NCBI RefSeq assembly: GCF_041886205.1
Contig: NZ_CP169029.1
Length of the DNA: 64,000 nt
Reading direction: 5' to 3' (one strand)
From: Escherichia coli
GTDB lineage: Bacteria; Pseudomonadota; Gammaproteobacteria; Enterobacterales; Enterobacteriaceae
A program made the position numbers and the translations under genes. Shown here piece after piece: positions 47,990-63,507 of this stretch. The notes beneath the pieces are model-generated. The model saw nothing but the letters and a program-made list of their open reading frames with translations, made no database searches and was not told the origin of the DNA. Numbering within the stretch: position 1 is the first letter of the stretch; each line of letters opens with the position of its first letter.

Positions 47990-48316
47990 ATGACTAAAAA
48001 TACTCGTTTTTCCCCCGAAGTCCGTCAACGGGCAGTCCGTATGGTTCTGGAAAGTCAGAGCGAATATGACTCACAATGGGCGACAATTTGTTCCATTGCT
48101 CCAAAGATTGGCTGTACGCCGGAGACTCTGCGTGTCTGGGTTCGCCAGCATGAGCGGGATACCGGGGGCGGTGATGGAGGGCTCACCACCGCTGAACGTC
48201 AGCGTCTGAAAGAGCTGGAACGTGAAAATCGTGAACTGCGCCGCAGTAACGATATCCTTCGCCAGGCTTCCGCTTATTTTGCGAAGGCGGAGTTCGACCG
48301 CCTCTGGAAAAAATGA
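47990..48316 (+). CDS. IS629 transposase OrfA (HTH)
   Basis: 108-aa [22 protein letters not shown]...; ends in an A-run slippery site. Confidence 0.85.
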
Positions 48317-49203
48317 TGCCACTGCTGGATAAGCTGCGTGAGCAGTACGGGGTCGGACCGCTATGCAGCGAACTGCATATTGCCCCGTCAACGTATTACC
48401 ACTGTCAGCAACAGCGACATCATCCGGATAAACGCAGTGCCCGTGCGCAGCGCGATGACTGGCTGAAGAAAGAGATACAGCGCGTATACGATGAAAATCA
48501 CAAGGTATACGGTGTGCGTAAAGTCTGGCGTCAGTTGTTACGGGAAGGTATCAGAGTGGCCAGATGCACTGTGGCACGTCTCATGGCGGTTATGGGACTT
48601 GCCGGTGTTCTCCGGGGTAAAAAGGTCCGTACGACCATCAGCCGGAAAGCCGTTGCCGCAGGCGACCGCGTAAACCGTCAGTTCGTGGCAGAACGACCTG
48701 ACCAGCTGTGGGTGGCTGATTTTACTTACGTCAGCACATGGCGGGGCTTCGTCTATGTGGCGTTCATCATTGATGTGTTTGCCGGATACATCGTGGGGTG
48801 GCGGGTCTCATCGTCCATGGAAACGACATTCGTGCTGGATGCACTGGAGCAGGCGTTATGGGCCCGTCGACCGTCCGGCACGGTCCATCACAGTGATAAA
48901 GGTTCTCAGTATGTATCGCTGGCCTACACACAGCGGCTTAAGGAAGCCGGATTACTGGCATCAACAGGAAGTACAGGCGACTCGTATGACAACGCGATGG
49001 CGGAGAGCATCAATGGTCTTTACAAAGCGGAGGTAATACACCGTAAGAGCTGGAAAAACCGTGCAGAAGTGGAACTGGCCACACTCACGTGGGTGGACTG
49101 GTATAACAATCGACGATTGCTGGAAAGGCTGGGCCATACTCCTCCGGCAGAAGCAGAAAAAGCTTATTATGCTTCCATCGGAAACGATGATCTGGCAGCC
49201 TGA
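48313..49203 (+). CDS. IS629 transposase OrfB (DDE integrase domain), -1 frame relative to OrfA
   Basis: 296-aa ORF with DDE motif region; overlaps orfA in the -1 frame as in IS3-family elements. Confidence 0.85.
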
Positions 49204-53828: not shown

Positions 53829-54223
53829 CGAGATTAAAGTGCATTAGTTCAGATGCAAATTGACATTTTGTGGCACAGGGTAGAGCTAGCGTGGTTGTCC
53901 GCTTTGTGCCAACAGCGGACATTATGGAAGGTCAGAGTTAAAGATTAAAATGGGATGCTGTGTGTTTTCTCCAGGTTTTGCTCTATACCTTTCGGGATAC
54001 TCCACCGACAGAATACGAAAATCAACATTATCAACGGCTCGAAGTGTCTAGATTATCCATGGCAATTCATGGGAAATCCCATCCAACGGCTTATGCTTCA
54101 TGTTGCTTTTTGAGATCGCTTCTAGCATAGCTCCACTCAATAATGTTGTCGGGTCGTTGCTGATCGAAAAGGATACGGGATTCAATACCATTACCTAAAA
54201 AGCTGGTACCGGAACTCGGGCTG

Positions 54224-55228
54224 GTGGTCGTTAAGCCGGGCCGTGAATCCATGCCGGTATTCCACAATACCCGGGTACTGGTGGAGCCGGAACCGAAAAG
54301 CATGCGTAATCTGCCGTCCGGGGTCGTTCCTGCCGTTCGCCAGCCGCTGGTGGAAGACAAAACATTGCTGCCGTTTTTCAGTAACGCACGGGTAATTCGT
54401 GCTGCTGGTGGTGCTGGTGCATTGTCTGACTGGCTGTTGCGCCATATTAAATCCTGCCAGTGGCCACACGGCGATTATCATCACAGCGAAACCGTTATTC
54501 ACCGATATGGTACCGGCGCAATGGTGTTGTGCTGGCACTGCGACAACCAGCTGCGTGACCAGACATCCGAATCACTCGAGCAACTTGCTCATCAAAACCT
54601 GTCAGCATGGATGATTGACGTCATCGGTCACGCAATAAGCGGTACGCAGGAGCGTGAATTATCTCTGGCTGAATTATCCTGGTGGGCGGTCCGCAATCAG
54701 CTGGCGGACGCGCTACCGGAAGCGGTATTACGTCGCTCGCTGGGATTACCAGCGGAAAAAATCTGCTCGGTGTACCGCGAAAGCGACATCGTACCGGGAG
54801 AGCAGACCGCCACCAGCATATTGAAACAGCGCACAAAAAATCTTGCACCGTTGCCTCACGCCCACCAGCAACAAAACCCATCACAGGAAAAGACGGTGGT
54901 AAGCATCACCGTTGATCCAGAGTCTCCGGAATCTTTCATGAAGCTGCCTAAACGTCACCGGTGGGTTAAGGAGAAATACACACGCTGGGTTAAGACACAG
55001 CCGTGTGCTTGCTGCGGTATGCCAGCCGACGATCCGCATCATCTGATTGGTCACGGGCAGGGCGGAATGGGAACCAAAGCACATGATCTCTTTGTTTTGC
55101 CTTTGTGCAGAAAGCATCACGACGAGTTGCATACGGATACCGTGGCATTTGAAGAGAAGTATGGCTCCCAACTGGAGCTGATTTTTCGATTTATCGATCG
55201 CGCGCTGGCAATTGGTGTGCTGGCCTAA
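54224..55228 (+). CDS. DUF968-family prophage protein with C-terminal Cys/His (HNH-like) motif
   Basis: C-terminus …[43 protein letters not shown]…; start uncertain (GTG 54224 or ATG 54251). Confidence 0.55.
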
Positions 55229-55245: not shown

Positions 55246-55623
55246 ATGCGTGATATTCAGATGGTTCTTGAGCGTTGGGGGGCATGGGCGGCTAATAATC
55301 ATGAAGATGTGACCTGGTCGTCCATTGCCGCCGGTTTTAAGGGATTAATTCCTTCAAAAGTAAGATCTCGTCCGCAATGCTGTGACGATGACGCGATGAT
55401 CATTTGTGAATGTATGGCTCGCCTGAAAAAAAACAACAGCGATTTACATGATTTATTGGTGGACTATTATGTCGGCGGCATGACTTTTATGGCGCTTGCA
55501 CATAAGCATGGGCGATCTGATTGTTGGGTTGGCAGGATGCTCCAGAAAGCTGAGGGCGTAGTGGAGGGCATGCTGATGGTGTTGGATCTCCGATTGGAGA
55601 TGGATGCTGATTGTTCGAAATAA
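55246..55623 (+). CDS. putative late-gene antiterminator (small Q-like family)
   Basis: 125-aa ORF with RBS GGAG, located just upstream of a terminator and the lysis region; family assignment from memory. Confidence 0.45.
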
Positions 55624-55721
55624 TTAAAGGAAAAGTTGCTGTCTGATTTTCATTAGTCTAACATTTTAAATGTTGGAATCGCAACGTAGTTATTATCATA
55701 TAACAGCTTGTTTCCTGATTT

Positions 55722-55750
55722 AGCCAGCCTCCCCAAAGGCTGGTTTTTTT
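55722..55750 (+). terminator. intrinsic terminator about 100 bp downstream of the Q-like gene (candidate tR')
   Basis: Hairpin GCCAGCC-TCCCCAAA-GGCTGG followed by a T7 run. Confidence 0.6.
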
Positions 55751-55778
55751 CTAATAAGTATCATTTCGGGTGGGGATT

Positions 55779-56303
55779 TTATTGTTTAACCCATAATAGT
55801 TCATTGACATTGAATCCCAACTTTTGAGCGGTACGCACATAGTCTGCTTTTACATTATCTGGAATAGTTTGGGTCCTTGCCAGAATCCATAGGTATTCTC
55901 TGTTCGGACCACTGACAAGAGCATACTTATACTCATCATCCAGTTTGATTACATTATAGCCACCATAGAAGGGGCCAAAAAACGAAACTTTCAACGCTGC
56001 AGTTTTAGTATCTCCAGTAAAGTATGCTTTACCTTCGCTCTCGCTCCATTTGTTTTTCGTTGGATCGTATCCACGGTTAAGTACGCGAATCCCTCCGTCG
56101 TTCCGTTTTTCATAAGTAGCGCTGACCTGTTCCAGACCACGTTCGAACCAGTTCTCGAGGCGAGCTATTTCATACCATTTTCCGAGGTAGCGGTTGGCGT
56201 CAAAATTTGTAATCGGCTGCACACCTTTAGGTGGTGTCGGGGCCTTACATGCTATAAGAGTGAAAGAGAGTGCAATGCCAGTCAACACAGGCCATAACTT
56301 CAT
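55779..56303 (-). CDS. outer-membrane lipocalin lipoprotein (Blc-like)
   Basis: 174-aa ORF with lipobox (LIAC) and lipocalin motifs (…NFDANRYLGKWYEIARL…, …KVSFFGPFYGGYNVI…). Confidence 0.75.
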   Translation of the reverse strand: MKLWPVLTGIALSFTLIACKAPTPPKGVQPITNFDANRYLGKWYEIARLENWFERGLEQVSATYEKRNDGGIRVLNRGYDPTKNKWSESEGKAYFTGDTKTAALKVSFFGPFYGGYNVIKLDDEYKYALVSGPNREYLWILARTQTIPDNVKADYVRTAQKLGFNVNELLWVKQ

Positions 56304-56495
56304 AATAAATCCTGTACTTTTGATAGTTGAGAGTAAGTATGAAAGATAGATGAGTACGACCGATCACTTAAAGAACTTTCCTACTATATTAGGAATAGTC
56401 AATAACAGAAAAATTGTCAGTGATGAAGCCAGAAAGGCAATTTAGTCCGTGCACTACAAAGTTTATGTGTTAATGAATTAGTCAAGGGGGAGGAA

Positions 56496-57455
56496 ATGAT
56501 AAAAAAACCTGTGATTGGGATCAGCGGTTGTTTGGGCGGTTCTGCTGTTCGTTTTGATGGTGGTCACAAAAGAGATGACTTTTTAATGGACAAATTAGTG
56601 GAATGGGTAACATTCAGACCAGTATGTCCGGAAATGGCTATAGGGCTGCCAGTTCCGCGTCCTGCTCTACGACTTGTGCGCTCGAAGCAAGGAAATATAC
56701 GGATGTGTTTCAGCCACGACCAGAATGAGGATGTGACAGAGAGAATGACAGAGTTTAGTCGTTCTTATATGGACAAATTAAAGGATGTATCGGGGTTTGT
56801 GGTTTGTGCTAAATCTCCCAGCTGTGGCATGGAGCGCGTGCGTGTCTATGATGAAAATGGTAATCGAGGTCGTAAAGATGGAGTGGGACTATTTACGAGC
56901 ACTTTGATGGAAAAGTTTTCCTGGCTACCGGTTGAAGAGGATGGGCGATTACATGATCCAGTGCTTCGTGAGAATTTTATTGAAAGAGTTTTTGCTTTGC
57001 ATGAGCTCAATCACCTTTACAAGGAGAAATTATCAAGAAGAGAGTTATTAGCTTTTCATAGTCGTTATAAGCTTCAGTTGTTGGCGCATAGCCAGGCAGG
57101 CTATAAAGATATGGGACCATTTGTGGCTGCAATACACGAGTGGGCGGACCTTGAATCATACTTTGAGGTGTATCGTGATAATCTGATGGCGATTCTCAGA
57201 AAACCAGCATCACGTAAAAATCACACGAATGTGCTGATGCATATACAGGGGTATTTTAGTAATTACTTAAGTACACGCCAGCGTAAAGAGTTGAGCGAGG
57301 TTATACTTAACTATCGCTTTGGCACATTGCCTCTTCTTGCGCCGTTGACTCTGCTGAAGCATTATCTGGGTGAGTATCCTAATGATTACTTGCTTACACA
57401 GAATTACTTCGATCCCTATCCGGAAGAACTGGCTCTAAGACTGATGGTGAATTAA
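56496..57455 (+). CDS. DUF523/DUF1722 fusion protein (YbgA-like C-terminal half)
   Basis: 319-aa ORF with conserved Cys residues in the N-terminal half; family call from memory. Confidence 0.5.
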   Translation: MIKKPVIGISGCLGGSAVRFDGGHKRDDFLMDKLVEWVTFRPVCPEMAIGLPVPRPALRLVRSKQGNIRMCFSHDQNEDVTERMTEFSRSYMDKLKDVSGFVVCAKSPSCGMERVRVYDENGNRGRKDGVGLFTSTLMEKFSWLPVEEDGRLHDPVLRENFIERVFALHELNHLYKEKLSRRELLAFHSRYKLQLLAHSQAGYKDMGPFVAAIHEWADLESYFEVYRDNLMAILRKPASRKNHTNVLMHIQGYFSNYLSTRQRKELSEVILNYRFGTLPLLAPLTLLKHYLGEYPNDYLLTQNYFDPYPEELALRLMVN

Positions 57456-57861
57456 CTGTATGCGATATCATCTGAAAGTGATGAGTTCCTGTATGCAGGA
57501 TATTTACAATCGTAAAAACTACGCTATGATGCTCATAGTGTCAGTTTTTATAAAAATCCTGTTCACGCTAAAGAAAACATTGAGATGCAATTTAATGTTG
57601 GTAAACATACCAACCCCAAAAGATTTTATTCAATCTGTTTTTATATGAAGATATTTCAAGTGAATATAAAGAGCATATAATATTATTATTGCACGCAGCT
57701 ATTATAATATAACAGATTAGTTTAATGATTTGTTTTTTGTGAGTTAAACACATGGTTTTATAGTTGTGATGCAATGAGATTTTCCTTATTGTTGAACTGG
57801 CGAATATTGATTTTCCACCTATACTTACCTGGTGTAACCCCAATGATATCAGGTGGATAAT

Positions 57862-58575
57862 ATGTCATACATATGTTCTATCATTTTGGTGTTGAACTCG
57901 TTTGGTGTCCGAATTGGTAAAGAAGATATTTTGTTTAAAAAAGGAAATGCTGTCCTCATTGAATACAATTTAAAAGATCTTTTTTCGTCAAATACAGATC
58001 ATCTAATGATCGTAGATGTTGAGGAGAAAACAGTTAATGATTTCTTTAAAAACTACACACTCTCACCTTTTTCTGTAAGAAGGTTTTATCCGTCATACTT
58101 GATAGTAGAATGTGAAGATTTTTCATTGTTAAAGAACTTGGTTGCATGCTTGAATTGTGATAGCAAAACCGTGGATGTAGTTAGAAATCAAATATCACTT
58201 GCATGTCTTGCTGTCTTATCTTCAGAGAAAATAGTGCAAAGTTTTTTGTTCGGAAGTCTTAATAGCTTAGGTTGTAAAGTTAAGGCTATTATTCACTCGG
58301 ATATCTCAGCGTCATGGAGACTTTGTGATATATCTTCAAGATTATATATGAGCGAGAGTTTGTTAAAAAGAAAATTAAAAGACGAAGGATTATCGTTTAG
58401 TAAATTAATTCTTGAAGAACGAATGATGATGGCGCAAAGATTATTGATCTACAGTAACCATACTGTCGGCAAGGTGGCGGGAATATGCGGGTATGACAAT
58501 GCATCATATTTTGTAAGTGTTTTTAGAGGATATTTTGGTGTGCCTCCGCACCAATATTTATCAAGATTTTCTTAG
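57862..58575 (+). CDS. AraC-family transcriptional regulator
   Basis: C-terminal AraC-type HTH (…LLIYSNHTVGKVAGICGYDNASYFVSVFRGYFGVPPHQY…); RBS AGGTGG before ATG at 57862; gene and flanks visibly AT-rich. Confidence 0.75.
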   Translation: MSYICSIILVLNSFGVRIGKEDILFKKGNAVLIEYNLKDLFSSNTDHLMIVDVEEKTVNDFFKNYTLSPFSVRRFYPSYLIVECEDFSLLKNLVACLNCDSKTVDVVRNQISLACLAVLSSEKIVQSFLFGSLNSLGCKVKAIIHSDISASWRLCDISSRLYMSESLLKRKLKDEGLSFSKLILEERMMMAQRLLIYSNHTVGKVAGICGYDNASYFVSVFRGYFGVPPHQYLSRFS

Positions 58576-58765
58576 AAGATATGATGTGATGGCATTTTAT
58601 AAAGTTATTTTTTGAAGTGTAAGATTATACGATATTTTTAGCTACGCCAGAATAATTGCTGGCGTTTTTCTTTTTGAATAGATGTTCGGGCCTTACGCTA
58701 ATGTAACTTCTTTCCTTCTTCGAACCAAACCGTGTACACCATCCGTTATCTGCGGAGGTGAGGCT

Positions 58766-58981
58766 ATGAAATCCATGGATAAGTTAACAACGGGCATCGC
58801 CTACAGCACCTCTGCAGGCAGTGCTGGCTACTGGTTTTTACAGTTGCTCGATAAAGTCACGCCCTCACAGTGGGCGGCAATAGGTGTATTGGGTAGTCTG
58901 GTATTTGGCATGCTGACGTATCTGACAAATCTTTATTTCAAGATTAAAGAAGACAGGCGTAAGGCTGCGAGAGGAGAGTAA
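58766..58981 (+). CDS. phage holin, class II (S21-like pinholin)
   Basis: 71-aa product [26 protein letters not shown]... with two TM segments; RBS GGAGGTGA; first gene of lysis cassette. Confidence 0.85.
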
Positions 58982-60320: not shown

Positions 60321-60683
60321 GGTAATATTAAATCGGAACATTTACATCGCGGAATGTAAAATTTAAATAAAAAGGACTCTTCCATGAGCCAAAATTCCTG
60401 AAATCTTAAGGGTAAGATAAAAGGTCTTAATCAGAATGACACGTTATTATTAATAAATAAAGCTATTCTTTCATTGCTGTGTTTTTCTTTACAAAAGTAA
60501 TCCTTGCTATGGGTGGTTAATCATGCGTTAATGGTGTTCTGGTTTGTTACAAATTTATCTGAAGCAGTCATTGTTATAATTTTATTATTTGTACCTCTTG
60601 AGATTTCCTTGTTGGTTTTTCTCTCTGATATTTTTTTTCGGACCATTCTGCCCAAGGGCTAATTTCTTCAAAAGGTAATAATT

Positions 60684-60896
60684 ATGTCTAACAAAATGAC
60701 TGGTTTAGTGAAATGGTTTAACCCTGAAAAAGGTTTTGGTTTCATCACGCCGAAAGATGGCAGCAAAGATGTGTTTGTCCATTTCTCAGCAATTCAGAGC
60801 AACGATTTCAAAACATTAACTGAGAATCAGGAAGTTGAATTTGGTATTGAGAACGGACCTAAAGGTCCTGCCGCTGTTCATGTAGTGGCGCTTTGA
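60684..60896 (+). CDS. cspI: cold-shock protein (CspA family), prophage-encoded
   Basis: 70-aa [41 protein letters not shown]...; preceded by a long AT-rich leader. Confidence 0.8.
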
Positions 60897-61167
60897 GGTA
60901 GACAATATTACAAACCATATTCACTTTAGATGCCCGTGTTGTCATGGTTCCCAGTATAGAACATCATCTTTTGATGTTTCTGACATGAATCCTTTCGGGG
61001 CAAAATGTATCTTTTGTAAATCAATGATGATTACATTTGATAATATTTCACAATACTTAAATGCCAGCCGTCTGTCGTTGGATTTAAAAAAGTGAAAATG
61101 AAGGCTCCTTCGGGAGTTTTTTTGCTTGGTATCTATTCGATGGATACTCACATACTACGGTAACATC

Positions 61168-61398
61168 ATGAAAAAAATCATAGTTTTTTTTAACTCTGAA
61201 CCAGCAGTGGTAGTGCCAGCGATGACTGGAGTTAACACCATCATGCGTGAATATCCAAATGGCGAAAAAACACACCTTACTGTAATGGCCGCAGGGTTTC
61301 CATCTCTGACCGGAGATCATAAAGTCATTTATGTAGCAGCGGATCGACATGTAACTTCAGAAGAAATTCTGGAAGCAGCAATGAGACTCTTGAATTGA
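61168..61398 (+). CDS. hypothetical small prophage protein
   Basis: 76-aa ORF from ATG at 61168 (MKKIIVFF...); weak RBS. Confidence 0.35.
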   Translation: MKKIIVFFNSEPAVVVPAMTGVNTIMREYPNGEKTHLTVMAAGFPSLTGDHKVIYVAADRHVTSEEILEAAMRLLN

Positions 61399-61570
61399 TT
61401 TGATTCTAATGCATTGATAATAAATGATAATCATCTTTATCTGTTTGTGTGAAATTTAGACCGTCGTATGTTGATTATTGCGATGTTTCATCTTATCTTT
61501 TATACGTTTGCTCCATATAATTGACACTACTGTGTACCAGGACAGTCATAACAGACTAAAAGAGGAAATG

Positions 61571-61744
61571 ATGAACATTGAAGAGTTAAAAACAAAAACA
61601 GAAGCAGATATTTCTGAATATATAACAAAAAAAATCATTGAGCTTAAGAAAAAGACCGGGAAAGAAGTTACCAGTATCCAGTTTACTGCACGGGAAAAAA
61701 TGACTGGTCTTGAAAGCTATGATATCAAGATTGATTTAATCTAG
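61571..61744 (+). CDS. gnsB: GnsA/GnsB-family small protein
   Basis: 57-aa product MNIEELKTKTEADISEYITKKIIELKKKTGKEV...REKMTGLESYDIKIDLI. Confidence 0.75.
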   Translation: MNIEELKTKTEADISEYITKKIIELKKKTGKEVTSIQFTAREKMTGLESYDIKIDLI

Positions 61745-62039
61745 CATGTTTATAGTATTAGCATCAATTTCTCATCAGATGCTATTCAACAATACAAATT
61801 ACCCATAAACCTCGTTTTTACGGGGTTTTGTTATATTTAAACATTACCGAATAGATATAAATCTCGATTGTCGATGGTATTGGTTATGTGACAATACCTA
61901 GTCTTTCCGGTATGCCTGAAGAGAATACAAACGACAGATTATGTAAGGGAAACGCGCTGAAACTTTCACTCTTTCATGCTGAGTGATTTGACGTTATATT
62001 TTTAGCCGCAAGTGAAGAGCAAACGAATGGAGCGACAAA

Positions 62040-62246
62040 ATGCATAAAGATCAATACACTGATGCCCCCTCCCAGGAGCAGGTTCGTGTAAAAACTATGC
62101 TTAATAGCACCATTTCGATGGGTTACCCGGATGTTGTAATTGCATGTATAGAACATCAAGTATCTCTGGAAGCATTCAGGGCAATTGAGGCCGCGTTAGT
62201 AAAGCACGATAAGAATACGAAGGATTATTCCCTGGTGGTTGACTGA
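62040..62246 (+). CDS. hypothetical small prophage protein
   Basis: 68-aa ORF; no recognised family. Confidence 0.3.
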
Positions 62247-62469
62247 TCACCATAACTGCTAACCATTCTGACCATTTCACAAGTGACAGAGTCAATATCG
62301 TATTCTGTCACTGTAAGGCTAATACAGTACTGCAATTCAACTACAGCAATGCCTCGTATTTAGGTGAATTTACAATATCGTCCAGTTCGGATGCCGGCTG
62401 CATTTCTGAAGATAAGGCATTTCGGTTCGCGTATTTTCCCCTCATGCTCGTCAGTCCTGCGCGTAGTAA

Positions 62470-62838
62470 GAAACACCAAACGGGACGGTTACAGTCACCA
62501 TAAGCGATGATCATAACTTTGACCGTCAAATCATTATTCCGCCCATTATCTTTAACGGAATAGCGTATAGCGATCCGGGAAGTGGTAATAACCCGGGAGG
62601 TACAAGATACACGGGTTATGGTTTTGAAGTTCGCAAAAACGGTGTATTAATCGCATCCAGAGAAACTAAAGGGGCCATTCCCGGTAGCTACAGTGCGGTT
62701 ATTGATATGCCGAGTGGCAGGGGAAGCGTCACTCTGGAGTTTAAGGTTTTCCATAAAGGCAATCAGTGGGCAGGTAATATCACCGACTGTACGGTGATTG
62801 TGACCAAAAAAGCCGCTTCCGGCATCAGTATTCGTTGA
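62470..62838 (+). pseudogene. 3' remnant of an upstream tail gene (host-specificity J-like), no start codon
   Basis: 123-codon open frame ending at TGA 62836-62838 with no in-frame start; lies immediately upstream of lom as J does in lambda. Confidence 0.4.
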
Positions 62839-62907: not shown

Positions 62908-63507
62908 ATGCGTAAACTTTATGCCGCCATTTTGTCCGCAGCCATTTGTCTGGCCGTATCCGGTGCGCCTGCATGGGCATCTGAACATCAGTCCACGCTG
63001 AGCGCGGGGTATCTTCATGCCTCGACGAACGTTCCCGGCAGCGATGATCTTAACGGGATTAACGTGAAATACCGTTATGAGTTTACGGACACACTGGGGC
63101 TGGTGACGTCATTCAGCTATGCAGGAGACAAGAATCGCCAGCTTACCCGTTACAGCGATACCCGCTGGCATGAAGATTCCGTGCGTAACCGCTGGTTCAG
63201 CGTGATGGTGGGGCCGTCTGTGCGCGTGAATGAATGGTTCAGCGCGTATGCGATGGCGGGTGTGGCTTACAGCCGTGTGTCGACTTTCTCCGGGGATTAT
63301 CTCCGCGTAACTGACAACAAGGGGAAAACGCACGACGTGCTGACCGGAAGTGATGACGGTCGCCACAGCAACACGTCTCTGGCGTGGGGAGCTGGCGTGC
63401 AGTTTAACCCGACCGAATCCGTGGCCATTGATATTGCTTATGAAGGCTCCGGCAGTGGCGACTGGCGCACTGACGGTTTCATCGTGGGTGTCGGTTATAA
63501 GTTCTGA
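62908..63507 (+). CDS. lom: Lom/Ail/OmpX-family outer membrane protein
   Basis: 199-aa ORF with signal peptide, beta-barrel features and C-terminal …GVGYKF; RBS GAGAGG. Confidence 0.85.

Follow-up and report, generated by a model that had tools for sequence, protein, structure and literature searches.

The subject of this study is a set of three low-GC genes that fills the interval between the antiterminator gene Q and the holin gene of a Qin-type lambdoid prophage in Escherichia coli, contained in a 64,000-nucleotide stretch of contig NZ_CP169029.1 that is here called the window. The genes code for a Blc-like lipocalin lipoprotein, a TudS-DUF1722 fusion protein identified by homology as the tRNA 4-thiouridine desulfidase RudS, and a regulator of the AraC/XylS family. 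Together they are probably a lysogenic-conversion ('moron') cassette of composite make-up that occupies the Q-to-holin slot of a defective prophage and in which a blc-rudS pair, apparently captured as a unit from an enterobacterial chromosome, stands beside an AraC-type regulator that appears to be independently mobile; on the evidence, independent morons assembled as a mosaic are a better description than a dedicated system. Each part comes from a known family, a RudS orthologue at 92 % identity having already been assayed, and current understanding is not overturned by the cassette. The most useful new point is that roughly one-fifth of complete E. coli genomes have RudS by way of this cassette, whereas the paper that defined the enzyme (Jamontas et al. 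2024; PMC11417400) calls E. coli RudS-less.

The three open reading frames (ORFs) were confirmed to be intact where a sequence-only reading of this DNA had placed them, and its description of a low-GC, three-gene cargo island between Q and the lysis genes stands. Within the prophage, which is integrated beside rspB in the chromosome, the gene order is ydfU (DUF968), Q, blc (minus strand), rudS and araC, followed from 58766 by the lysis cassette essQ-ydfR-rrrQ-rzpQ. The lipocalin gene (55779–56303, minus strand, 174 amino acids (aa)) runs antisense to late transcription and is parted from rudS (56496–57455, plus strand, 319 aa) by a divergent intergenic region at 56304–56495 with a GC content of 0.34. 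The araC gene (57862–58575, plus strand, 237 aa) is given here with the RefSeq ATG at 57862 as its start, the ORF of the earlier reading opening at a GTG at 57853; it is preceded by an AT-rich leader (57553–57861, plus strand, GC ~0.31) that holds promoter-like sites and the recombination breakpoint separating the cassette's left and right halves. The GC content of 55624–58700 is 0.380, compared with 0.487 for the whole window, making this the lowest 3-kb stretch in the 64 kb (only 0.08 % of 3-kb segments reach a value as low) and setting the cargo apart in composition from the surrounding phage genes. By part, GC content is 0.438 in blc, 0.432 in rudS, 0.333 in araC and 0.31–0.37 in the intergenic regions.

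Comparison with the K-12 prophages defines the borders of the island. Against DLP12 (quuD-nmpC-essD), homology ends at 55605 and returns at 58746, delimiting an exchangeable slot of approximately 55606–58745, while against K-12 Qin, which has another Q gene and the cargo genes cspF/cspB, it ends at 55228 (the end of ydfU) and returns at 58737. To the left lies the Q gene (55246–55623, plus strand, 125 aa), of the QuuD/DLP12 type, annotated in RefSeq as an 'antiterminator Q family protein' and matching the Q-like PHROG 79 (E 1e-49); to the right lies essQ (58766–58981, plus strand), a class II holin gene, just after the point (58737–58746) at which homology to both K-12 prophages resumes. At the same place, the porin gene nmpC is found in DLP12 and in phages D2 and Perceval, and cspB/cspF in K-12 Qin; additionally, in many sequenced phages the similarity is confined to the Q and holin flanks, with a porin gene between. 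Because relatives share the flanks but hold different cargo there, this is a classical exchangeable slot between Q and the holin gene S (the Q-S slot), much as the sequence-only reading had proposed for a lambdoid prophage, and its alternative of ordinary chromosomal genes beside a prophage boundary falls away, since the genes lie inside the prophage. Here, the Q gene is itself part of the exchanged unit. Strains such as JSMCR1 match the window at 99.8 % identity. Similarity to the nearest genomes stops at ~62475, and a Lom-like ORF (62908–63507; PHROG 108, outer-membrane protein) follows; terminase, head and tail genes are not present between ~62475 and the Lom gene, and the prophage appears defective because its structural genes seem to have been lost.

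The family assignments made earlier for the three products were borne out by NCBIfam, Pfam and helix-turn-helix (HTH) matches. In the rudS product, PF04463 (2-thiouracil desulfurase, formerly DUF523) covers residues 7–149 (independent E-value (i-E) 1.2e-39) and PF08349 (DUF1722) covers residues 192–309 (i-E 9.4e-40) of the same polypeptide, and the TudS structure 6Z92 gives a weak match. Across its full 319 residues, the product shares 92 % identity with gp66 of Escherichia phage 1H12 (H3V29_gp66), which is RudS_vir, and Cys12, Cys44 and Cys110, the [4Fe-4S] ligands of RudS_vir (Table 1, PMC11417400), all stand at matching positions in the alignment. All of the RudS variants assayed, including RudS_vir, lowered 4-thiouridine (s4U) in E. 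coli tRNA, the activity of RudS_vir having been shown by overexpression in E. coli (PMC11417400). RudS genes are typical of light-responsive operons, and RudS_KT shortened the growth delay induced by ultraviolet A (UVA). Judged by homology, then, the enzyme encoded in the window is RudS, and it would turn s4U8 of tRNA back into uridine through a [4Fe-4S]-dependent desulfidase activity such as that demonstrated for RudS_vir. What had been called an uncharacterised Cys-containing enzyme thus belongs to a family with an experimentally tested member, its phage orthologue at 92 % identity. E. coli K-12 is without RudS, and the cassette therefore supplies an activity absent from K-12.

The cassette is widespread. 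When presence was scored on the whole 3.8-kb Q-to-holin stretch, with at least 80 % covered, it was found in 953 of 5,426 complete E. coli genomes; in the same sample, rudS is intact in 1,063 and araC in 995. It also occurs in 12 deposited phage genomes (1H12, the Lambda_ev series and IdasGreatGrand) and in ~36 IMG/VR contigs, which disposes of the earlier proviso that the three genes might never be co-located in other prophages. In these contigs, the order Q-blc-rudS-araC-S holds wherever the flank suffices, with one exception, the viral contig L025, which has Q-blc-rudS and is without araC in 5 kb of downstream flank. Q is 96–99 % identical wherever the cassette occurs. Its flanks vary, with ydfU 58–100 % identical and the endolysin of two unrelated types. 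In E. coli 360D-1, the lambda attachment site, which lies between ybhC and ybhB/bioA, is occupied by a much-eroded prophage (L094:12633-24670) that has kept rudS, araC and the lysis genes, with the lipocalin gene truncated by IS1 and trkG just downstream. The varied flanks and this remnant imply that the cassette moves between lambdoid backbones and outlives them. Approximately one-fifth of complete E. coli genomes (1,063/5,426) thus carry a prophage-borne RudS, nearly always via this cassette, and isolates may therefore differ from K-12 in s4U content, in UVA growth delay and in the stringent response; any such difference would be phage-transmissible.

These figures bear on whether the cassette does anything at all. 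That it is inert passenger DNA, decaying along with a prophage that lacks head and tail genes, and silent as AT-rich DNA of the H-NS type often is, must be considered very unlikely: the ORFs are intact in ~1,000 genomes, the catalytic Cys residues are conserved, and the ratio of nonsynonymous to synonymous substitution (dN/dS) is 0.07–0.27 for all three cargo genes. All three are under purifying selection.

The origin of the blc-rudS half can be read from loci outside E. coli, for which one genome per species was scanned for RudS, giving 41 loci. The closest RudS proteins there are at most 75 % identical to that of the window. In 21 of the 41 loci, a lipocalin 68–80 % identical to the phage version is encoded on the opposite strand just upstream of RudS, and the two genes are directly adjacent in Citrobacter sedlakii and Citrobacter sp. 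JGM124. Enterobacter, as represented by E. cloacae (L061:4661-5898), has two further genes between blc and rudS, one for a MerR/MlrA-like regulator of 241 aa and one for a periplasmic, transthyretin-like protein of 136 aa; the phage cassette is without both of these genes. No AraC, Q or holin gene was found at the chromosomal blc-rudS loci of the 41 other-species genomes. The phage rudS gene has a GC content of 0.43 and a GC content at third codon positions (GC3) of 0.40, compared with 0.51–0.61 for chromosomal copies, and forms a long separate branch in the tree. The blc/rudS intergenic region is conserved among the phage variants, and a shared operator sought between phage and chromosomal (Citrobacter) blc-rudS intergenic DNA was not found, there being no conservation between them. 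The low GC content, the long branch and the unrelated intergenic DNA together argue that the capture was an old event and not a recent one.

The two halves of the cassette also have different histories. Synonymous divergence (dS) is greater on the araC-holin side (0.32–0.60) than on the Q-blc-rudS side (0.02–0.29), and from phage 1H12 in particular it is 0.18–0.29 on the Q-blc-rudS side and 0.60–0.69 on the araC-holin side. Aligned to 1H12, the cassette shows a discontinuity at 57686/57767, identity being 90 % on its left and 80 % on its right. The capture of blc-rudS as a unit and the separate mobility of the AraC regulator are suggested by these sequence comparisons. The cassette would thereby exemplify a chromosomal gene pair that was captured whole, drifted to low GC and was then shuffled between phages together with its Q gene. 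Phages have taken up RudS on another occasion as well: in the IMG/VR contigs L042-L047 (e.g. L046:5001-5960), the nin region holds a 72 %-identical RudS by itself, ahead of rusA, DUF968 and Q, in a prophage lineage that has no lipocalin or AraC gene and whose Q-S slot is filled by csp genes, and this nin-region RudS is an independent phage acquisition. Citrobacter braakii ATCC 51113 (L051, L052) has two RudS copies, with GC contents of 0.512 and 0.535, the lower-GC one of which groups in the tree with the RudS of the nin-region prophages, suggesting that other mobile copies exist.

It has to be asked, in light of the Enterobacter arrangement, whether the three genes might form one module, in which the AraC protein replaced the MerR-type regulator and, on a signal from the host niche, governs blc and rudS, so that lysogens would gain a regulated envelope and tRNA stress response. 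The tight linkage of the genes (953 whole cassettes, 1,063 rudS, 995 araC), their invariant order in viral contigs, the disappearance of the MerR/MlrA-like gene that stands between blc and rudS in Enterobacter, and the replacement of the blc-rudS intergenic DNA relative to chromosomal pairs would all fit such a module. It is nonetheless unlikely, because AraC relatives of the same family occupy Q-S slots that are without blc or rudS, prophages exist that have RudS but not araC or blc, contig L025 has Q-blc-rudS without araC, araC departs from blc and rudS both in GC content and in divergence, a recombination breakpoint lying between the two parts, and the characterized relatives PatE, PsrB and AppY act on host regulons rather than on their neighbours. 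As to the earlier remark that this gene combination was not recognizable as a described system, no account of the trio as a unit was found in the searchable literature, and to that extent the remark holds; the trio, however, looks less like one dedicated system than like a captured blc-rudS pair joined to a mobile AraC regulator.

The AraC-type protein bears a C-terminal double HTH (HTH_18/HTH_AraC, PF12833/PF00165), as seen from precomputed Pfam hits on a 99 %-identical protein (P0001), and its C-terminal domain matches the DNA-binding domain of GadX (3MKL, E 4e-21). In NCBIfam, the models for YdeO, HilD and GadX score highest, though none comes near its cut-off; with scores under the equivalog cut-offs, the protein is a relative of YdeO and GadX, not an orthologue. 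It is 48 % identical over 237 aa to ECs_0287 of the Sakai prophage Sp1, where that gene is the sole AraC-type gene, and it shows 37 % identity to a Q-S-slot regulator of O157 and 30 % to AppY. We take ECs_0287 to be PatE, and the O157 regulator, going by the TW14359 locus and its presence in two copies per genome, is presumably PsrA/PsrB; Sakai prophage Sp6 was examined for PsrA, and there was no AraC gene there. AraC-like regulators 37–38 % identical to that of the window lie directly 3' of Q-type antiterminators in strain A34 (L095:6001-6714) and in O157:H7 TW14359 (L097:5001-5714), followed downstream by tRNA genes and/or a NanS esterase gene and then the holin gene, and from these two loci it follows that this family of AraC regulators is recurrent Q-S-slot cargo. 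By similarity, the protein of the window belongs to an AT-rich, prophage-borne group that includes AppY, the presumed PatE and the presumed Psr regulators. In the review literature, gadE is described as activated by PatE and PsrB, which share a binding region in the hdeA promoter, and AppY is stated to be a further regulator of genes of acid-resistance system 2 (AR2). Most likely, therefore, if homology is a guide, the AraC protein would activate the GAD/hdeAB acid-resistance regulon, in which case the cassette adds an uncharacterized lineage to the prophage AraC regulators that rewire acid resistance.

The lipocalin, an outer-membrane lipoprotein, is assigned to Blc by NCBIfam NF007786 (312.6 bits, against a cut-off of 267) and matches the solved Blc structures 3MBT (E 8e-67) and 1QWD (E 2e-65) over residues 16–174. 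Its lipoprotein signal, MKLWPVLTGIALSFTLIAC, has a lipobox, L-I-A-C, that ends at Cys19, as read from the translation. Full-length identity to K-12 Blc (b4149) is 59 %, at which level the lipocalin is a paralogue and not an orthologue of the chromosomal protein. By homology, its ligands would be lysophospholipids or fatty acids.

Transcription of the cassette can be modelled from its anatomy. Immediately after Q, a candidate region for the late promoter pR' (55624–55721, plus strand) includes a possible TTGCTG-17-TAACAT at 55636–55664, read from the sequence; the region downstream of Q is partly conserved with DLP12, including the block ATATAACAG. Next comes an intrinsic terminator, a candidate tR' (55722–55752, plus strand), with a 9-bp GC-rich stem and a T run (-14.9 kcal/mol, z -4.3), which is kept in phages 1H12 and IdasGreatGrand. 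An Rfam scan of the island gave a single, sub-threshold match, which is just this terminator (55709–55752), and no non-coding RNA; tRNA genes, as in the slots of Shiga toxin (Stx) phages, were sought in the window and none was found. A strong hairpin with a U tract, 57 nt past the rudS stop (57512–57552, plus strand; -17.5 kcal/mol, z -7.0), was returned by the terminator scan as a candidate rudS terminator, and a further intrinsic terminator lies in the gap between araC and the holin gene (58644–58670, plus strand; 7-bp GC-rich stem and T run, -11.3 kcal/mol, z -3.0), this one also kept in 1H12 and IdasGreatGrand. Promoter-like sites near araC lie at 57503–57530, overlapping the rudS hairpin and upstream of the leader, and at 57737–57764. 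In lambda and Stx phages, a Q-modified RNA polymerase that starts from a promoter just past Q reads through terminators. With three terminators between Q and the holin gene, such a polymerase must traverse the whole cargo to reach the lysis genes. On this lambda/Stx analogy, read-through upon induction would give a burst of rudS and araC, both co-oriented with late transcription, along with the lysis genes, as happens with stx in the phages that carry it. While the prophage is quiescent, expression of each gene would require a weak promoter of its own, probably silenced by H-NS, and blc, being antisense to late transcription, would have to rely on its own promoter in any case. For the lysogen, the physiological benefit may lie in less UVA-triggered tRNA cross-linking and growth arrest, and in acid resistance.

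The same anatomy raises the question of whether RudS serves mainly as a lytic-cycle tool, its Q-dependent late expression after UV induction erasing s4U from host tRNA. The gene follows the direction of late transcription, with pR'/tR' on one side and the lysis genes on the other, the second prophage lineage has rudS co-oriented with early/nin transcription, phages that form plaques or were induced (1H12, the Lambda_ev series and IdasGreatGrand) carry rudS, and there is a published link between s4U, UVA growth delay and ppGpp. Yet the cassette is kept in defective prophages that are unable to make virions, both in the window and in the remnant at the lambda attachment site, which argues for a benefit to the host, and a strong hairpin right after rudS is typical of an autonomously expressed moron; a mainly lytic role is therefore possible but rather doubtful. 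In a broader and somewhat less probable form, RudS, expressed late or delayed-early, may serve lambdoid phages to erase s4U from host tRNA during UV-triggered induction. If that were so, the UVA sensor of the host (s4U8-C13 cross-link, uncharged tRNA, ppGpp and growth arrest) would be uncoupled from phage protein synthesis, RudS would be the first phage-encoded eraser of a tRNA modification with a defined lytic-cycle role, and the AraC regulator and the lipocalin would adjust how the lysogen responds to acid and to envelope stress in sunlight- and gut-exposed niches.

A role in anti-phage defence or superinfection exclusion, part of what the sequence-only reading had suggested, is extremely unlikely. 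Accessory slots of prophages often hold defence genes, and the related prophage in JSMCR1 has an AbiH gene 3 kb upstream; all three proteins of the cassette, however, have clear chromosomal homologues of a housekeeping type, and the defence reading was rejected when PADLOC gave no match for the three cargo proteins or Q. In PHROGs, all three cargo proteins fall into families of unknown function.

Several points weigh against the composite lysogenic-conversion cassette and the functions proposed for its parts. The near-constant linkage of the three genes could mean joint function rather than hitch-hiking between Q and S. For the regulator, the scores are low, at 114 bits for YdeO against a cut-off of 348 and 90 for GadX against 500, and the naming of ECs_0287 as PatE presumes that Sakai Sp1 corresponds to OI-8 of EDL933. 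With regard to expression, the scan for consensus promoters did not call the pR' candidate, the exact position of pR' being a guess, and a sigma-70 scan gave 13 promoter-like sites compared with 11 ± 3.3 in shuffled sequence, which is no excess. Concerning RudS, the UVA phenotype was demonstrated for the Pseudomonas enzyme only, and RudS_vir was the least active RudS assayed, despite good protein levels (PMC11417400).

Elsewhere in the window, past the lysis genes, 60400–62500 is another accessory cluster of low GC content (0.37), which comprises cspI, ynfQ/ymcF, ynfR, ynfN and a gnsB-like gene; the cspI leader (60538–60923) is a full-length match (112.8 bits) to the Rfam cspA thermoregulator. 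Upstream, JSMCR1 differs from the window by a 3.8-kb insertion between the DUF977 gene and ydfU (window junction 54203–54208; L002:23831-27596), which contains the AbiH abortive-infection gene, a gene for a 463-aa hypothetical protein, and hokD, and this junction looks like a variable defence/toxin hotspot in the nin-equivalent region. A match to the Rfam ALIL pseudoknot at 48271–48387 (plus strand, 120 bits), the frameshift element of IS3-family transposases, indicates an IS3-family insertion within the early region of the prophage.

Among known systems, the closest to the cassette is the locus of RudS_vir, which shares the TudS-DUF1722 architecture, the 319-aa length, the three Cys ligands and, in the same order, the neighbouring genes for Q, lipocalin, AraC and holin. 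The window allele has 26 substitutions, however, and nucleotide identity across the cassette is 87.7 %; moreover, RudS_vir sits in a viable lambda-like phage, whereas the window copy is in a defective Qin-type prophage, and the published work handled the gene in isolation (PMC11417400). The chromosomal blc-rudS pairs of Enterobacter, Leclercia, Citrobacter sedlakii and others, and RudS_ST of Salmonella (STM1389/ORF319), have the same divergent arrangement with the lipocalin gene upstream, and the pairs encode RudS proteins 66–75 % identical to the phage version along with the similarly related lipocalins noted above, but they are GC-rich, often accompanied by a MerR/MlrA-like regulator, and located away from AraC and phage genes. 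E. coli Blc (b4149) resembles the cassette lipocalin over its full length, in its lipoprotein signal and in its lipocalin fold family, but its gene adjoins ampC, and the window protein is nearer to the RudS-linked lipocalins (76–80 %). For the regulator, the comparison is with PatE (OI-8), PsrA/PsrB (OI-50/57), AppY (DLP12) and the host proteins YdeO and GadX, all of which are likewise ~240 aa, encoded by an AT-rich gene and furnished with a C-terminal double HTH; PatE, PsrA, PsrB and AppY are, in addition, prophage cargo, as is the window regulator, with relatives in Q-S slots too, whereas the window protein represents a distinct lineage found with this cassette only. Finally, like the other Q-S cargo of lambdoid phages (stx, nmpC and cspB/cspF), the cassette lies downstream of Q/pR'/tR' and upstream of the holin gene, in a slot whose content can be swapped through recombination within the Q and S genes on either side, and it differs from them in the content of the cargo and in that the window-type Q is always inherited with it.

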